A stretch of 43,934 bases of DNA from a virus (lineage: Duplodnaviria > Heunggongvirae > Uroviricota > Caudoviricetes): IMG/VR virus record IMGVR_UViG_3300024054_000549; one strand, given 5' to 3'. Under the pieces are notes generated by a model. That model saw only the letters and a list, made by a program, of their open reading frames with translations, made no database searches and had not been told where the DNA came from. Positions within the stretch are counted from its first letter, which is position 1. Each line of letters opens with the position of its first letter. A program made the translations under genes and the position numbers. This document shows positions 1 to 23,418 of the stretch, one piece after another.

Positions 1-357
1 ACCAAAGAGCAATGCGACGAATACCTGGTGCGCATTCAAGACTTCTTGCGCGATGAGCTGCATCTGGAGCTGTCCAAATACACCATCGCGCCCACCACCA
101 AAGGCGTGAATTTTGTGGGCTACCGTACATGGGGCTCCAAGCGATTCATCCGCAAACACAGCCTTTTTAAGTTCACCAAGGCGGTCAAGGCTGGCCGCCT
201 GGATTCCGCCGTCTCCATCCTGGGGCACGCCCGCAGGACATGGAGCCTCAGTCACCTTGTCTCAACAATAAAGGAAATTAATCATGACATCTATCTTCTC
301 TTACCGCAAGCATATCGACGCAATCACCACCCGCGAACTGCGTCTGCCAGAGGGTGA
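1..357 (+). CDS. Reverse transcriptase, C-terminal fragment (5'-truncated by window edge), DGR-like
   Basis: Frame is open from base 1 (TKEQCDEYLVRIQDFLRDELHLEL...GVNFVGYRTW). GVNFVGYR matches RT motif 7 (GxxFLGY), followed by a basic thumb region. The YxDD motif would lie just upstream, outside the window. DGR subtype is pattern recognition only. Confidence 0.75.
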   Translation, partial: TKEQCDEYLVRIQDFLRDELHLELSKYTIAPTTKGVNFVGYRTWGSKRFIRKHSLFKFTKAVKAGRLDSAVSILGHARRTWSLSHLVSTIKEINHDIYLLLPQAYRRNHHPRTASARG

Positions 358-700
358 AAACCATCAGAAAATCGGCACAGAGCTGGCCACCATTAATGGC
401 GTTACTTATATCAGCCTGCCAGATGGCGCCACACTCCCAGCCGAACAACCCGCAGAGATTGCAGCCAGCATCGCGGATGTGATGCTGACACCGGAACTGC
501 GTGCCGCCATTTCTGATGCCAGCCCGCATGTGCGGCTGATCCGCCAGCGGGTGCAGGATCGGATCGCCGAGCGTTACTCGATGGCCGATGAGATCAAGCT
601 GCTGCGCACCCAACCATCGGCCGAGTTTGAGGTCTATAACGCCTATGCCGAGGATTGCCGCGCATGGGGTCGCGCAGAACGCGCCAAACTGGGTCTCTAA
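284..700 (+). CDS. Hypothetical phage protein (138 aa) downstream of the RT
   Basis: ATG with an AAGGA RBS embedded in the RT 3' end; overlaps the RT by 74 nt; same GC-rich composition as the RT. Confidence 0.7.
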   Translation: MTSIFSYRKHIDAITTRELRLPEGENHQKIGTELATINGVTYISLPDGATLPAEQPAEIAASIADVMLTPELRAAISDASPHVRLIRQRVQDRIAERYSMADEIKLLRTQPSAEFEVYNAYAEDCRAWGRAERAKLGL

Positions 701-780
701 CACATTGTATGCAAAGATGCATTTGTTAAAATGCTCAATACCTCATTAGAAATGAAAATTGAAACTGTTAAGGACTAATT

Positions 781-1020
781 ATGATTCCTCTGGATAAACA
801 GGCTCACTTTTTCTCCGGAGGAACTATTGCTGCTATGGCTCTCCCGTTTGGGTTAGCTGTAGCCGTAGTTGTTCTTGGAGTGGCTGCTTTCGGTAAAGAA
901 GTGTATGACAAGTTCCATCCTGAAAATCACACTGCTGATATTTGGGATGCTATAGCAACTCTGGCTGGAGGAGCATTGATAATTATTTGGCAATCTTTTG
1001 TGCCTGGATTATTAGTATAA
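781..1020 (+). CDS. Small membrane protein (79 aa), VanZ/YfiM-like
   Basis: AAGGA RBS. DKQAHF start, hydrophobic helices and KEVYD...D..AT..GG pattern are typical of this small membrane family. Confidence 0.6.
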   Translation: MIPLDKQAHFFSGGTIAAMALPFGLAVAVVVLGVAAFGKEVYDKFHPENHTADIWDAIATLAGGALIIIWQSFVPGLLV

Positions 1021-1113: not shown

Positions 1114-1140
1114 AAAAAGGAGCTTTATGCTCCTTTTTTT
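1114..1140. terminator. Bidirectional intrinsic terminator
   Basis: AAAAAGGAGC-tttat-GCTCCTTTTT hairpin with A and T tracts, between convergent gene blocks. Confidence 0.85.
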
Positions 1141-12704: not shown

Positions 12705-14981
12705 TCATTCCAAAATAGTCATCCATTTATGTGCACCATAAGTTTTTGACATTAAATCATATGAAGATTTATCAGTAATGAACAACGCTACTGAATTCTT
12801 ACGAACTTTAGCTAATTTAAAGAACTTAAATGTTTCTTTATCATGAACCAAATCAGCATCTGTGAACATAATAATATTCATATTATTTTCATGGAAATAT
12901 TCAATTATCTTGTGCATCTGTGGTATATATTTTGTACCAGAAGCATAACCTACACTTAATAATTTTTGAAGTTGTTGTTTCTGACCGTACTTAATATCTT
13001 TAGGTTTAGTAAGTAAAACATCATGATTAATCAACTTTTCAGATTCCATCGCGTTAATATTAACCTTATGAACTTCAAAATCTGTACTGAACTTAATAAC
13101 GAACATATTGCTAAGTTCTTTTTTATTGTCTTTAAGAAGTTTAAGAATTTCTTTATTGAAATTTCCTACAACATTCATAACAGAACCAGAAGTATCAATT
13201 ACAAATACTAAACCTTTTTTATTACTGTCAAATACAACTTCACCGGGTGTAATTCTTCCAGCACCAGTTTGAGATGCTGTAACCATTGAAGATGTAGCTT
13301 GTCTGGACATTTTTGAATATGTATCCTCAGCTTCACCGTTTCCGGTTGGAATCATTTTTTTGAGAATTTTTTTCCAATTGATAGTTACTTTTGTATCATC
13401 AAATTCAATTTTTGCTGTACCAGAACTATTAATATTACTCTTGACAGATGTATTATCGGAATCTTTTTTCTCTAATGCTGTTTTAGCATCATCATTACCG
13501 TCGTCTCTTTTACTGATGTTTTCTCTATTCTTTTTCATTGCTTCATCAATACTTTTTGCTATTTTATCGGCTGGATGAGCATCATTATTTCCTTGCCCTG
13601 ATTGTCCTGGCTGACCTGATTGTCCTTGACCTTGACCTTGTTGTCCTTGATCTTGCCCAGGCTGACCTGATTGTCCTTGACCTTGACCTTGTTGTCCTTG
13701 ATCTTGCCCAGACTGATCTTGTTGTCCTTGACCTTGACCTTGTTGACCTTGATCTTGCCCAGACTGATCTTGTTGACCTTGATCTTGCCCAGACTGATCT
13801 TGTTGACCTTGCTGTCCTTGACCTTGCTGTCCTTGACCTTGTCCCTGATCTTGTCCCTGATCTTGTCCAGGCTGATCTTGTTGATCTTGTCCTTGACCTT
13901 GTTGTCCTTTACCTTGTTGACCTTGACCCTGTTGTCCTTGTTGATCACCAGATTGAGAATCCTTTCCTCCTTGTGATGGTGTATCATCAGAATTATCCAT
14001 ATGATCATCCATACCGGATTCCATGGATTGCTTCATTTTTTCTGTATCTTCTGGACTCTGATTGAAAAATTCTTCAATAACAGCTTCAATCATATCTTCG
14101 TATGTTTCAAATTTGTCATAGTTTATTTCTGAACTGAACAACCCAACTGGAAGCTGTTCATATCCAGACTTAACAAGCTCCCAGTTATTGATAAAATCAC
14201 CAACATAATTAAGTACAGAATTAGCGTTAGAACCAATTTTTGGATGTTTTTTCAATATTTTATCAACCATTTTTTTAGTATAGAAATGATCTCCACTTGA
14301 AAAATGCATCAATTCATGCAAAATAACAAACTCAAGATAACAGTAGTGATCTGGTATTGGGCCACCATTACTTTTGTATTTCTTAGATTTTGGTTTAACA
14401 TTGTTTATTAATGCAGAAATCGCTAATGTTTCAGAGAATTTTCTATTAAATACCATCTCGGCATTAGGTGTACAAAATGCTGTTTTGCAATTATTCCGTG
14501 CGTTTTCTCTTAATTTTTTATCATTAATTAATGGAAGATGATCTGGAGTAATAAAGAAAAATGGCTTAACAGCTTTTGTTTCAAATGGATTTCTTAATGG
14601 AAAGAATCTAGCGTTCTCACCAAGAACATATTGAGTTAAATCAAAAAAGTAATCTCTATCTAACAAATCTTCTCGATCTTTAACACCAAGAGGCTCTAAA
14701 TTAATATCGTCTGGATTTAACTCAGAAATAAGAGAGAATGCTATAGATTCAGCAGCGTTATTAACGGCATCTTTGTTCATTTTAGATGAACCAAGCTGTG
14801 AAATATGCTTATGGTATTGTTCGTTAAAATATTCCTGAGCTTCAGATAAATCTATGCCTTTTGTTTTGGCATAGACTTCAATAGACTTCTTGATATTTGA
14901 ATCATTAGGTGAACTCTTTTTTAATTCAAGATTAATCTTTAATGATTCCAAACGTTCATTTATAAAATTCAAAAAACTCAT
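12705..14981 (-). CDS. Zincin-like metallopeptidase + Q/G-rich linker + VWA domain protein (DUF2201-like architecture)
   Basis: TAFCT, HELMH (HExxH), long QG linker, DTSGS MIDAS and FTD. Start moved from TTG 14996 to ATG 14981. Confidence 0.85.
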   Translation of the reverse strand: MSFLNFINERLESLKINLELKKSSPNDSNIKKSIEVYAKTKGIDLSEAQEYFNEQYHKHISQLGSSKMNKDAVNNAAESIAFSLISELNPDDINLEPLGVKDREDLLDRDYFFDLTQYVLGENARFFPLRNPFETKAVKPFFFITPDHLPLINDKKLRENARNNCKTAFCTPNAEMVFNRKFSETLAISALINNVKPKSKKYKSNGGPIPDHYCYLEFVILHELMHFSSGDHFYTKKMVDKILKKHPKIGSNANSVLNYVGDFINNWELVKSGYEQLPVGLFSSEINYDKFETYEDMIEAVIEEFFNQSPEDTEKMKQSMESGMDDHMDNSDDTPSQGGKDSQSGDQQGQQGQGQQGKGQQGQGQDQQDQPGQDQGQDQGQGQGQQGQGQQGQQDQSGQDQGQQDQSGQDQGQQGQGQGQQDQSGQDQGQQGQGQGQSGQPGQDQGQQGQGQGQSGQPGQSGQGNNDAHPADKIAKSIDEAMKKNRENISKRDDGNDDAKTALEKKDSDNTSVKSNINSSGTAKIEFDDTKVTINWKKILKKMIPTGNGEAEDTYSKMSRQATSSMVTASQTGAGRITPGEVVFDSNKKGLVFVIDTSGSVMNVVGNFNKEILKLLKDNKKELSNMFVIKFSTDFEVHKVNINAMESEKLINHDVLLTKPKDIKYGQKQQLQKLLSVGYASGTKYIPQMHKIIEYFHENNMNIIMFTDADLVHDKETFKFFKLAKVRKNSVALFITDKSSYDLMSKTYGAHKWMTILE
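13585..13975 (-). repeat. Low-complexity coding repeat encoding a Gln/Gly/Asp linker
   Basis: Repeated ccttga, ccttgttgt and gatcttgcccagact units encode QGQGQ and QDQSGQDQG blocks. Confidence 0.85.
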
Positions 14982-18202: not shown

Positions 18203-19510
18203 TTATATACCATAATTTTCTAAGAATTTTTTAAAAATAATAAAATCTTTTAATGAACTACCGTACAAATTATTTTTCATAATTACATTTACTAATAATT
18301 CATTATTTATTTTAGTTCTTTTAGCTAAATATTTGATTTGAGACATATCCAAGCGATATATATTATTCTTAAATATAATTTCAAAGTCTGAAAGATTTGG
18401 ATCGTAATGATATCTCGATCCCCATATCTTGTTTAATTTTCTGAATTCTTCCTCAGATATATACACCATTGCAGAATCTTTTACGTATTTAGGATCAAAG
18501 AACTCTGGATTCTGAATTATTTCTTCTTCCGTAAAAAATCTTTCGTTAGTAAAATCGATGGTTTCTGAATCTTTTAATTTTAATTCTTTAATTTCTTTAA
18601 GACTTATTTTTGTATTTTTAACCATTAAGCTAGGTGATAAGAAATCTTTGAACTTTATTATTTGCTCACGCGTGAGAAATTTTATTACATAATGTGGAAA
18701 ATTTCCATCGGGTGTATTGAATTTCCTTTGAAGATATTCATCTGGTAAAATAAGGTTTGGGTGTTCTTCAACGTATTTAAATAAATCTGTAAATTCAACA
18801 TTGTGAGAAGTATTTATCAAGAACTCTAAGAATCTAGATTCAGGAAAATCTTTAATTAGAACATAAACACCTTGAAAAGATTTTTTAGCATAATCTATTA
18901 CTTCTTCATCAGATTTAATGAATTTATGAACAAATTCACTTAAATTTTCTATCAAAATATTATGTCTAACTTGTTCATTTATTTTTAAGATTGTATCTAA
19001 GAACTTTTTTCCTTCTTCTTGACTTAATACGGTACTGTCAAGTTCACCAATTTTTACATTAGAACTCAAAGTTTTTAGAATACCTATAATTTTTTCTATA
19101 TTATTAGGTTTTAAGAACAATTCAAAGATTTTTTTATTAGCTACTGCCGTACTGATAAGTAAGAATATATTGACATCGTTTATACGAGTATAAAACATCT
19201 TAGATATTTCATAAATACTAATAAGAAAATCCTCCCATTGAGTCTCATTTGGTTTTGAGCTTGCTGAGCTTGATTTAATAACATTTTTAAGCACATTATT
19301 AAAAATGTTATCTTTGAAAATGTTTACACCGTATTTTCCTTTATAGATTTCAAAAATAGTTCCATAATTATTCATTATAAAATCTAGAATAAAATCAAAT
19401 TCAAAAGAATAATTAGATTTATCAGTACTGAAATCAAGTAAGATATCAGTCTGTAATAAACCTTTCCAGTCTTTTTTATTGATCAGATCTTGTTTTTCTT
19501 GTGTGTACAT
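18203..19510 (-). CDS. Paralogue array member 4 (435 aa, most divergent), unknown function
   Basis: Shares MxTQEKQDLIxKKDW and RFFTEEEIIQNPEFFDP with the three neighbouring genes. Confidence 0.85.
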   Translation of the reverse strand: MYTQEKQDLINKKDWKGLLQTDILLDFSTDKSNYSFEFDFILDFIMNNYGTIFEIYKGKYGVNIFKDNIFNNVLKNVIKSSSASSKPNETQWEDFLISIYEISKMFYTRINDVNIFLLISTAVANKKIFELFLKPNNIEKIIGILKTLSSNVKIGELDSTVLSQEEGKKFLDTILKINEQVRHNILIENLSEFVHKFIKSDEEVIDYAKKSFQGVYVLIKDFPESRFLEFLINTSHNVEFTDLFKYVEEHPNLILPDEYLQRKFNTPDGNFPHYVIKFLTREQIIKFKDFLSPSLMVKNTKISLKEIKELKLKDSETIDFTNERFFTEEEIIQNPEFFDPKYVKDSAMVYISEEEFRKLNKIWGSRYHYDPNLSDFEIIFKNNIYRLDMSQIKYLAKRTKINNELLVNVIMKNNLYGSSLKDFIIFKKFLENYGI

Positions 19511-19523
19511 GCAATTTCCTATA

Positions 19524-20816
19524 TTAATAGCTATTTATGAATTCTTTAATGAAATTAAAATTTTCTAATTTTGGATTTAAGTAACTACTAGATATTGCAT
19601 TAACTAACTCTGTATTGTTTATTCCTGTTTTCCTAATCAAATATCTTAAAATATCTATAGAAAAATATTGTAAACTTGCTAAACTTTCAAACAATGATGA
19701 AAATTTAGATAAATTATTGTCGTATTTCTGTTTTTTGCCCCAAGTTTTATTTAACAGTGCAAATGTACTCTCTGAAATATATAGATGACCAACATTTTTA
19801 ACAGATTCTGGATCAAAGAACGCTGGATTCTGAATTATTTCTTCTTCGGTAAAGAATCTAATTTTAGATACATCAAAGAATTCGACAGATTTGAATTCTT
19901 TAACCTTATCTAATGGGATTCTTTTATTAAACACCATTCCGTATATATCTATTTGATTCTTATATTTTTCAGTTTGTTCTAAAGTTAGAATAGAAGCAAA
20001 ATTATTTAGTTTATTTTCTTCAAATATAGTTTTAACTAAATCATCAGGAAGAATCATATCTCTGTGAGATTTTACATAAAGAAGTACATCAGTAGATTCA
20101 ATAATTTTTAGATTTTTTCTAATAAAACTAATAAATCTATCTTCTGAAAATGTTTTGATAGCATTCTCCAAAGGAATATTTCCTTTGTTAAAGAATGAAA
20201 CAAGTTCATCATCTGTTTTAAACTCTTTTAGCAGTCTATTAATAGTTTTATCATCAAAATAAAATTCAATCGTGTGAAAGCTTCTATTATTCTTATAGAT
20301 AGTTTCGAATGCATCAAAAAGAGCTATAAAATCGTTAACAGATGAGCCTTCAGAATTAAAAGAATTAAAAGTTATAGATCTTTTCACTACCTGAAATAAT
20401 TCATAGAATTCAGGATTTTTACAATTAATTATGAACTTAATATACTCGGAATTTTTATTTTCATTATCAAGGAATGTATTAATATCTAAAGAAGATATAT
20501 CATTTGCTTTATTCTTTTTAATTTTAAAAAATTCATTAACGATTAATCCCCATTGATTGGCAGTTATATTAAGATTTAATTCTTTAGCTCTGAAGAACAT
20601 ATTTTTAGATATATACCGAAAACTCACCGTTTTATTAGTTGTAGATTTAATTTCATTAAATCTTTTTAGAACGAATTCATATATAAAATCAAAATCAAAA
20701 ACGTATTTTCTGAATTCTGAATTGTTATGATCGTTTAATTCGTCTAAGATATCCGTTCGTAATAAACTCTTCCAGTCTTTTTTATTGATCAGATCTTGTT
20801 TTTCTTGTGTGAACAT
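19524..20816 (-). CDS. Paralogue array member 3 (430 aa), unknown function
   Basis: Same N- and C-terminal signature blocks; AGGA RBS. Confidence 0.85.
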   Translation of the reverse strand: MFTQEKQDLINKKDWKSLLRTDILDELNDHNNSEFRKYVFDFDFIYEFVLKRFNEIKSTTNKTVSFRYISKNMFFRAKELNLNITANQWGLIVNEFFKIKKNKANDISSLDINTFLDNENKNSEYIKFIINCKNPEFYELFQVVKRSITFNSFNSEGSSVNDFIALFDAFETIYKNNRSFHTIEFYFDDKTINRLLKEFKTDDELVSFFNKGNIPLENAIKTFSEDRFISFIRKNLKIIESTDVLLYVKSHRDMILPDDLVKTIFEENKLNNFASILTLEQTEKYKNQIDIYGMVFNKRIPLDKVKEFKSVEFFDVSKIRFFTEEEIIQNPAFFDPESVKNVGHLYISESTFALLNKTWGKKQKYDNNLSKFSSLFESLASLQYFSIDILRYLIRKTGINNTELVNAISSSYLNPKLENFNFIKEFINSY

Positions 20817-20829
20817 GTGTTTTCCTATA

Positions 20830-22116
20830 TTAATAGCTATTTATGAATTCTTTAATGAAATTAAAATCTTCATGATTTTTACTAGTGGGTCTGATTCGTC
20901 TACTTATTATTTCTTTAACTACCCTATCATTACTAGCACCTGTTTTTTTAACGATGTATCTTAAATCGTCGAATAAAAAGTATTTCAATCTTACAAGATT
21001 ATTACATAATGTTGTGAAATCTGACAAATCATTTTCATATTTCTGTTTTTTGCTCCAAGTTTTATTTAACAGTTTAAATGTACTCTCTGAAACATATAGA
21101 TAACCAACCTTTTTAACAGATTCTGGATCAAAAAATTCTGGATTCTGAATTATTTCTTCTTCTGTGAAAAATCTAATTTTAGATGCATCAAAAAATTCAA
21201 CAGATTTGAATTCTTTAACCTTATCTAATGGAATTCTTTTATTAAATAACATAGCCTCCAATGACAGTAAATCTTTATATCTTTCAATTTGTTCTAAAGT
21301 TAGAACAGTAGCAAAATAATATAATTTTCCAGTGTCAACTATAGTTTTAACTAAATCATCGGGAAGAATCATATCGCTATGAATTTTTATGTACTGATTT
21401 ATATTGTTTATGTTAATTATATCTAGGTTTTTTCTAATAAAACTAATGAATCTATTTTCTGAGAATAAATTAATTGCATTATGTAAAGGTACATTTATTT
21501 TTTCAAAGAACGAAATGAGATCATCGTCTGTTTTAATTTCATTTATTAATTTTTCAATAGTTTCATCATCAAAACCAAAATTAACTAAGTAATAGCTTTC
21601 ATTTTTGTAAATCTTATTGAATTTATCTGCAAGTTCTATGATATCATTAGCAGATAAATCATTTACATTAGAAGAATCAATAATTATAGTTGATTGATAT
21701 TCACGGTATAATTTGTCAAGTTCAGGATTATCATAATTAATTAGGAACTTAATAAATTCAGAATTCTTATTGCCTGTATCAAGAAATACGCCGTTATTTA
21801 TCAAAAAACTGTTATTATTGTTCTTTTTGATTTCAATGAACTCATTGATGATTAATTCCCATTGATTAGCAGTTATGTTAAGTTTTAATTCTTTAGCTCT
21901 GACGAACATATTTCTGAATAGACTATCAATATTTATTTTGTAATTTGCTGTAATTGCATTTTCATGAAATCTTTTTAGAACGAATTCATACATAAAATCA
22001 AAATTAAAAACGTATCTTCCTGTATCATTAATTTCAAAGTCAGGTAAGATATCAGTTTGTAATAAACCATCCCAGTCTTTTTTGTCGATCAGATCTTGTT
22101 TTTCTTGAGTGAACAT
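20830..22116 (-). CDS. Paralogue array member 2 (428 aa), unknown function
   Basis: Same signature blocks; AGGGA RBS. Confidence 0.85.
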   Translation of the reverse strand: MFTQEKQDLIDKKDWDGLLQTDILPDFEINDTGRYVFNFDFMYEFVLKRFHENAITANYKINIDSLFRNMFVRAKELKLNITANQWELIINEFIEIKKNNNNSFLINNGVFLDTGNKNSEFIKFLINYDNPELDKLYREYQSTIIIDSSNVNDLSANDIIELADKFNKIYKNESYYLVNFGFDDETIEKLINEIKTDDDLISFFEKINVPLHNAINLFSENRFISFIRKNLDIININNINQYIKIHSDMILPDDLVKTIVDTGKLYYFATVLTLEQIERYKDLLSLEAMLFNKRIPLDKVKEFKSVEFFDASKIRFFTEEEIIQNPEFFDPESVKKVGYLYVSESTFKLLNKTWSKKQKYENDLSDFTTLCNNLVRLKYFLFDDLRYIVKKTGASNDRVVKEIISRRIRPTSKNHEDFNFIKEFINSY

Positions 22117-22125
22117 TGGGTTTCC

Positions 22126-23418
22126 CTATATTGTGTAACTATTTATGAATTCTTTAATGAAACCAAAATTTTCATAATCTTTGTTAGTAAACTTAGTATA
22201 AGAGTTAATTATTTCTTTAACTACTATATCATTACTAGCACCCGTTTTCTTAACTATGTATCTTAAACTGTCTATTGAAAAATATTTTATGATTGAAAGA
22301 TTATTGTATAACGATAAAAAATCAGTTAATTTAGTTTCATATTTCTGTCTTTTGCCCCAAGTTTTATTTAATAGTTTAAATGTACTCTCTGAAACGTATA
22401 GATAACCAACCTTTTTAACAGATTCTGGATCAAAGAATTCTGGATTCTGAATTATTTCTTCTTCGGTAAAGAATCTAATTTTAGATGCATCAAATTGTTT
22501 AATAGATTTTAATTCTTTAACCTTATCTAATGGTATTTTTTTATTAAATATCATCAAATCTGTTGGTATTCGATCTTTATGTTTTTCAATTTGTTCTAAA
22601 GTTAGAACAGGAGCAAAATAATATAATTTTCCTGTTTCAACTATATCTTTAACTAAGTCATCTGGAAAAATCATATCTTTATGAGTTTTAACATAATGTG
22701 ATACATTAGATAAGGTAATTTTATCTAAATTATTTCTAATAAAACTAATGAATCTATCTTCTGAAAATAATTTAAATACACTATATAAAGGAGTATTTGA
22801 TTTCTTAAAGAATGAAATTATCTCTTCATCTGTTTTAATTTCATTCAATAGTTTTTCAATAATTTCATCATTAAAACTAAATTTAACTTTGAAATAATTT
22901 TCAGTTTTGTAAATGTTATCGAATTTATCTACAAGTTTTACAATATCATTAACAGATATGCCATCTATATTAAAAGAATTAAGAGTAATATCTGATTGAT
23001 ATCCACGGTATAGTTTATTAAGTTCAGGATTATCACAATTAATTAGGAACTTAATAAACCCAGAATTCTTATCTTTTGTGTTAAGAAATACACCATTACT
23101 TATTGAAAAATTTAACGTATCGTTCTTTTTAATCTCAATGAACTCAACGATGATTAATTCCCATTGATCAGCAGTTATATTAAGATTTAATTCTTTAGCT
23201 CTTACAAAAGTATTTACGAATAACATGTTAACATTTATTTTGTAATGTAATTTAACTATATTTTCATTAAATCTTTTTAGAACGAATTCATATATAAAAT
23301 CAAAATCAAAAACGTATTTTTTCGTGTCATTAATTTCAAAGTCAGATAAGATATCAGTCTTTATTAAACTGTCCCAGTCTTTGTTGTTGATCAGATTTTG
23401 TTTTTCTTGTGTGAACAT
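22126..23418 (-). CDS. Paralogue array member 1 (430 aa), unknown function
   Basis: Same signature blocks; first gene after a late promoter. Confidence 0.85.
   Translation of the reverse strand: MFTQEKQNLINNKDWDSLIKTDILSDFEINDTKKYVFDFDFIYEFVLKRFNENIVKLHYKINVNMLFVNTFVRAKELNLNITADQWELIIVEFIEIKKNDTLNFSISNGVFLNTKDKNSGFIKFLINCDNPELNKLYRGYQSDITLNSFNIDGISVNDIVKLVDKFDNIYKTENYFKVKFSFNDEIIEKLLNEIKTDEEIISFFKKSNTPLYSVFKLFSEDRFISFIRNNLDKITLSNVSHYVKTHKDMIFPDDLVKDIVETGKLYYFAPVLTLEQIEKHKDRIPTDLMIFNKKIPLDKVKELKSIKQFDASKIRFFTEEEIIQNPEFFDPESVKKVGYLYVSESTFKLLNKTWGKRQKYETKLTDFLSLYNNLSIIKYFSIDSLRYIVKKTGASNDIVVKEIINSYTKFTNKDYENFGFIKEFINSYTI

Follow-up and report, generated by a model that had tools for sequence, protein, structure and literature searches.

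A probable DGR cassette end from a temperate siphophage in the genome of an AT-rich T4-like lake phage

DGRs have long been regarded as a feature of temperate phages. The closest described system belongs to the Bordetella phage BPP-1, a temperate podovirus-like phage with its own complete DGR, which consists of Mtd, Avd, the template repeat (TR), and the reverse transcriptase (RT) Brt. Another described relative is Pseudomonas phage Bise (OR683401), where a four-helix-bundle gene is located upstream of the RT. DGRs on phage contigs of the lytic type have been reported (Cook et al. 2021, PMC7981956), and DGR transfers between genomes have been inferred at a deep scale (Roux et al., 10.1101/2020.04.01.020958).

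The locus considered here lies at the edge of a 43,934-nt stretch of DNA from the IMG/VR record IMGVR_UViG_3300024054_000549 (hereafter, the window), which belongs to a 160,076-bp contig and starts with the first base of that contig. The RT encoded at this edge is of the same clade as that of the BPP-1 DGR. Unlike in BPP-1, only the 3′ end of the RT gene and one downstream gene are seen, and they reside in a T4-like genome of 30% GC; no counterpart of the downstream gene, ORF138, has been described for BPP-1. Positions 1-701 probably represent the right-hand end of a DGR cassette that a T4-like lake phage took from a GC-rich temperate siphophage lineage and that has become resident in its new genome.

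The GC-rich patch and its T4-like surroundings

The backbone of the window is that of a T4-like phage, with a gp17-type large terminase and a T4-type replication set. Its TerL is of the T4 type and is matched by ~2,600 T4-like records, with Vibrio phage pv27 at the top (58.8%), and the SSB (PHROG 224), primase, helicases, RNR, and exonucleases found in the window agree with such a backbone. The source setting is a cold lake, and the T4-like phage DNA is very AT-rich (~30% GC). The GC content is 56.5% in 1-701 and 30.7% in 1101-43934, with the two segments in between listed in Table 1. A sequence-only reading of the same DNA had noticed GC richness (mid-50s %) in 1-700 with an abrupt drop behind it, an intermediate gene at 781-1020, a patch running opposite to the main strand, and a bidirectional terminator closing it, and all these observations are borne out: the three patch ORFs are on the plus strand, nearly every other gene of the window is on the minus strand, and a stem-loop with T-runs on both sides is picked up by the terminator scan (1 found vs 0.5 expected).

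Table 1. Features of the patch and its right flank, with positions in the window
Feature	Position	Strand	Basis
RT C-terminus, 118 residues, 5′-open	1-357	+	PHROG 1423 and tblastn to DGR RTs; IGNLLSQ/YVDD just upstream on L002
ORF138, complete 138-aa gene overlapping the RT 3′ end	284-700	+	Terminal gene conserved in the DGR clade
Recombination joint	698-702		Donor homology through the TAA stop and C (701), gone at 702
AT-rich spacer, 27.8% GC	702-780		Without counterpart in the GC-rich phage
ORF79, 79-aa hydrophobic membrane-type protein, 42.9% GC	781-1020	+	Few relatives
Bidirectional intrinsic-terminator-like stem-loop with A-run and T-run flanks	1114-1138		Between convergent ORF79 and the 243-aa minus-strand gene

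Beyond the patch, GC stays at or below 49% in all 300-nt windows, and the peak at ~13.6 kb corresponds to a collagen-like repeat. The latter is a short-period array at 13590-13956, situated inside a 763-aa minus-strand ORF and built of 15-30 nt units (CCTTGACC-like on the plus strand), which gives the local GC maximum of 44-49%. Several other features of the T4-like part may be mentioned. The 243-aa minus-strand protein (1412-2143) bears ESELNT/AKES coiled-coil repeats and shows weak PHROG matches to tail-fibre proteins; the nearest T4-like relative, L102, is without it. The region 18203-23418 comprises four tandem paralogues of ~430 aa each with only 24% GC, the copies being 65-92% identical at the nucleotide level. 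A 32-58 nt element at 1168-1229 recurs at similar depth on further contigs from these runs and probably serves the phage as a repeated regulatory element. An empty-site comparison by means of L102 revealed no synteny at the patch region, and in a search with the L102 gp15-like protein the 160,076-bp contig was absent among the 120 matches listed.

The closest cultured relative of the RT fragment is the RT of phage Bise (53-60% amino acid identity), and Brt of BPP-1 matches at 31-36% (tblastn). A JGI contig, L002, shows no difference from the window across the 1,150 nt compared; it reaches 641 nt further upstream and yields 331 RT residues in a frame that is open throughout. It carries IGNLLSQ, conforming to DGR motif 4 ([I/L]GxxxSQ), and the catalytic YVDD, both of which lie just upstream of window base 1 and are seen on L002/P0001. 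When the full RT was compared with solved structures, the top match at 190 bits was 8ub7 (a 328-aa RT), which we take to be BPP-1 bRT, in keeping with the tblastn match to brt; a group II RT scored 89 bits and retron-type RTs 64. The group II model TIGR04416 gave 109 bits against a cutoff of 300, and the RT, 341 aa long, is without an extra (maturase) domain. Defence-RT models also remained below their cutoffs (retron St85, 42/235; Drt3a, 57/200; AbiA, 22/250 bits). These comparisons, together with PHROG 1423, place the patch RT in the DGR clade, as originally suggested, and closest to Brt; a grouping with group II introns or retrons, named beforehand as part of the result that would speak against a capture, did not emerge, since those models and structures score far lower.

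Of 165 loci of this RT family, 149 have an ORF138 homologue behind the RT, so that the right breakpoint in the window coincides with the natural right edge of the cassette. In L121, a more distant GC phage, homology to the donor contig L009 also ends near the 3′ end of ORF138. The AF2 model of ORF138 (pLDDT 95.5) consists of a small beta-sheet and a helical bundle; a fold search found no match in the PDB, and the relatives are all uncharacterised and unnamed. Searches of Pfam, PHROG, and NCBIfam with ORF138 and ORF79 returned nothing except one weak PHROG match. ORF138 may be considered a candidate for an undescribed DGR accessory or fibre-assembly factor.

As for ORF79, it has only four detectable relatives, and those that can be placed occur in temperate-type phage contexts. 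In L081, a phage of ~40% GC, the order is avd-TR-RT-ORF138 with a 99-aa ORF79 homologue directly next (2097-2396; 44% identity over 55 aa); other relatives are located beside a GpA-type terminase and after an S74 tail-fibre gene. ORF79 is probably a second imported gene, older or differently sourced, and the foreign block as a whole would thus end at the terminator.

The siphophage donor and the proposed origin of the patch

The counterpart of the patch was found in a phage from the same lake metagenomes. Its contigs (L008, L009, and L088-L097, in a series to L101 drawn from IMG/VR, JGI, ENA, and Logan) are GC-rich throughout, 59-62%. Over 1-701, the window and the donor share 95.6-95.9% nucleotide identity and the same RT-ORF138 overlap, with no match elsewhere in the window, and the donor RT is 98% identical to the patch RT at the protein level. 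The tail part of the donor encodes, in this order, a tail tube, an assembly chaperone, a lambda-type tape measure, a gpJ-like tail protein, and a 139-aa gene; the DGR comprises a 442-aa target, bAvd, TR, RT, and ORF138; and behind it lie a 155-aa gene, an M15 endolysin, a holin, an integrase, pRha, and Cro-like genes. The donor is a temperate siphophage. The earlier suggestion of a GC-rich host lineage as the source was correct as to GC richness but not as to the kind of source, which is a siphophage and not a host chromosome.

Like BPP-1, the donor has a receptor-binding target with a C-terminal variable repeat (VR), bAvd, TR, and RT in the same order, and its mismatches are adenine-specific. 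The repeat is ~118 nt long (TR at 2238-2356 of L089), TR and VR differ at 10-18 positions per contig, 100% of them at TR adenines, and the VRs vary between contigs at exactly these sites; judged by such sequence signatures, the donor DGR is canonical and active. Its bAvd passes the Pfam model PF22296 (60.2 bits, cutoff 40) and scores 71 with NCBIfam DivGenRetAVD (cutoff 80). At least two donor strains can be distinguished (L009 and L091 vs L199, L217, and L218), whose avd-to-ORF138 cassettes differ by ~10% (158/1592) and are followed by the same 155-aa gene. When a metagenome collection lacking the newer lake samples was scanned with the window-type RT, all matches were donor-type contigs or L121. 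L195 (9971-10957) and L182, which are AT-rich, 66-70 kb long, and equipped with their own DNA polymerase, UvsX-like recombinase, and DnaB helicase, contain an AT-rich (26% GC) RT that belongs to the same family, is 62% identical, and is native to them.

The cassette taken up by the T4-like phage would have had the donor order (target, bAvd, TR, RT, ORF138), with only its right end visible in the window. Its acquisition would have occurred by illegitimate recombination that placed the joint one base after the ORF138 stop, at the right edge of the cassette, and the most probable setting would be co-infection, or infection of a lysogen by the T4-like phage, in a shared GC-rich host. The T4-linked copy would then work as a DGR diversifying a receptor-binding protein of a T4-like phage. 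Because two phages recombine only within one cell, a shared GC-rich host is likelier than the wide host jump proposed in the sequence-only reading, which becomes unnecessary if two phages simply met. Such a host is plausible since the genome of a large lytic phage can have a much lower GC content than that of the bacterium it infects: phiKZ has ~37% GC on a host of 66% GC. The searches for the host gave no call, the best match in a prophage-host scan of genomes being Psychrobacter (57%) and the best tblastn matches of the donor tail protein being Roseobacter phages (38%). A Psychrobacter genome contig (L200, L201) contains two RT copies ~35 kb apart that are 57% identical to the donor RT.

The joint at 701/702 and the AT-linked allele

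The joint is real and is not an assembly chimera. It recurs, exact to the base, in five further contigs from four JGI samples and one ENA assembly, among them L002, L003, and L007 (three JGI samples) and L005 (the ENA assembly, with MEGAHIT-style k141 names); it is also found at the ends of L004 and L006, two Logan contigs that bear it in their terminal 30 nt. Junction 31-mers are present in four Logan lake-water runs, released in 2018 and 2025. In these runs, the 30-mer 672-701 is a graph node that the donor-allele contig enters at 108-365x and that has two exits, one into the donor continuation (136-395x) and the other into the AT-rich phage (4-17x); the donor-allele contig is ~9-70 times deeper than the T4-like contig. 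The donor and the T4-like genome share no sequence past 701, and the junction k-mers must therefore derive from real reads. The layout does not vary among the seven ORF79-bearing contigs (7/7), and nothing else leads into 702 in the four Logan runs. In IMG/VR, the junction 38-mer has no match; a window-type 35-mer, also unmatched there, was found only in L002.

The AT-linked allele differs from the donor allele at 55 of 1,345 sites (~4%). Called against the two donor strains, L009-type and L199-type, it has 27 private changes, of which 22 are GC>AT (S>W) and 3 are AT>GC (W>S; p=1.6e-4), whereas the two donor strains together show an S>W:W>S ratio of 65:51 (Fisher p=0.003 vs the AT-linked allele). 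Third codon positions account for 22 of the 25 single-frame private sites (88%, vs 41.7% expected from G/C content; p=3.6e-6), and synonymous changes outnumber non-synonymous ones by 21 to 4. Base 622C, situated 80 nt from the joint, is shared by all AT-linked contigs and absent from both donor strains. Since the private changes are AT-biased and almost all synonymous, they point to residence in an AT-rich genome with RT and ORF138 under purifying selection, part of which may predate the capture. The initial idea of a recent capture by an AT-rich T4-like genome is supported. L005 was considered as a second independent AT-linked allele and rejected: its sequence is pieced together from L009-type, L199-type (0/634 differences), and window-type parts, and it overlaps the donor contig L097 at k=141.

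The import is very probably real and resident in the T4-like phage. A chimeric assembly or a library artefact, raised as the alternative from the very beginning, would mean that DNA of the two phages became fused in silico or in vitro; the same samples do contain both phages, with the GC phage far commoner in the runs examined, the patch is placed at a contig end, and contig ends in these mixed-strain samples are demonstrably strain mosaics (L003, L005). Nevertheless, it is extremely improbable given that JGI and ENA contigs and four Logan runs released in 2018 and 2025 repeat one base-exact joint, that no sequence common across 701/702 exists to mislead a k-mer graph, and that the GC side of the joint represents, in place of the abundant donor allele, a private one with AT-biased synonymous changes and with 622C, seen only in AT-linked contigs. 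The artefact reading fails because a private allele drifts to the recipient composition while two reading frames stay intact. It is likewise very improbable that the joint is confined to minor or transient recombinants, remade at each co-infection and lying outside the stable T4-like genome. T4-type phages are avid recombiners and the alleles are mosaic, which would suit this explanation, but new hybrids are expected to have the allele that the donor carries at present, whereas the observed one is 4% diverged and AT-shifted; moreover, a single layout is found in 7/7 ORF79 contigs, the four runs contain no alternative join at 702, and the joint is unchanged in data released seven years apart.

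Extent of the import and comparison with known systems

Window base 1 falls inside a 190-nt run (-65 to 126) that is identical between the AT-linked and donor alleles. The first 85 nt of L002 represent the donor allele, and the first 141 nt of L005 are the last 141 nt of the donor contig L097 from the same k141 assembly. Contigs stop where the rare allele merges with the far more abundant, near-identical donor, and so the truncation of RT is most likely an assembly break and not a biological end, with the T4-linked copy continuing upstream. Only RT (to codon 11, via L002) and ORF138 are linked to T4-like DNA. A contig search for TR, avd, target, or VR joined to AT-rich DNA found none, as every AT-linked contig ends at or after RT codon 11, and there is no VR-like sequence within the 43.9-kb window of the 160,076-bp contig. 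Thus, of the DGR/tail-fibre cassette proposed in the sequence-only reading, RT and ORF138 are linked, while the tail-fibre target, VR, TR, and avd were not found linked; similarly, the upstream inspection that it recommended revealed YVDD and IGNLLSQ on L002, while avd and a TR/VR pair differing at adenines were found in the donor and not on T4-like DNA.

L002 is the sole contig that extends the T4-linked allele, and its first 301 nt are without private changes (P=0.002 under uniformity); here the assembly graph may have led into the abundant donor allele, or gene conversion by the donor may have taken place recently. Mixed-strain mosaics (L003, L005) make fine-scale linkage unreliable close to the contig ends. 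In the Logan contigs of the four runs, the window-type allele upstream of 672 is not displayed; as contigs drop rare variants, this is uninformative on absence. The bAvd variants P0019 and P0020 were tried as the T4-linked upstream part and set aside, their contigs being donor strain 2.

That the T4-like phage has a complete working DGR is a tentative reading, to which we give a little under an even chance. Its strongest form is rather unlikely: a virulent T4-like phage would run a complete active DGR from a temperate siphophage of the same GC-rich host and hypermutate its receptor-binding protein, with recombination with the prophage refreshing the copy again and again. Refreshing by a resident prophage would leave the RT 5′ end “young” while the rest ameliorates; against a full DGR, a siphophage receptor-binding protein is not obviously compatible with a T4-type baseplate. 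According to the opposite explanation, the joint is real but the import is a fragment, namely RT (perhaps 5′-truncated) and ORF138 without TR, Avd, or VR target, serving as a passenger, a relic, or in some non-DGR role. It would account for AT-rich DNA being linked to nothing upstream of RT codon 11, for a window without VR-like sequence, for the lack of allele-private changes in the first 301 nt of L002, and for a window-type 35-mer occurring in L002 only. A 21:4 excess of synonymous changes with 88% at third positions is, however, not expected of a decaying relic, the RT frame is open over the 331 residues seen, the contigs end where the alleles merge and not at an AT-rich left flank, and the right breakpoint is the natural edge of the cassette; a mere fragment is unlikely. 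If the cassette taken from the siphophage is complete, targeted hypermutation of host recognition would operate in a T4-type lytic phage.

The capture described here lets a DGR module be seen crossing between very different phages, from a temperate siphovirus of 60% GC to a virulent T4-like myovirus of 30% GC, and gives a concrete example for the general claim of DGR movement among genomes. As recombination requires two phages in one cell, it also provides a testable tie of an uncultured T4-like phage to a GC-rich host. In addition, the direction and codon position of allele-private changes offer a simple test for distinguishing a resident import from an assembly chimera.

Compared with known systems, phage Bise and the lake siphophage have the cassette followed by GC-rich lysis genes and an integrase, whereas the window continues from 702 with AT-rich T4-like DNA. 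The best 60 GenBank phage records for this RT type are all ~104 kb long or shorter. The locus resembles the published cases (PMC7981956; 10.1101/2020.04.01.020958) in two respects: a phage that lacks lysogeny genes carries a DGR-type RT, and there is evidence of movement between unrelated genomes. L195 is another AT-rich phage of the lytic type with an RT of this family. DGRs on lytic-type phages are, therefore, already known; the new element is that the capture by a T4-like phage is recent and its donor resolved. Unlike those cases, which are native-looking elements or deep phylogenetic inferences, here both the donor and the recipient are in hand at ~96% identity, and the transfer further differs from the published ones in its base-exact joint and measurable amelioration.
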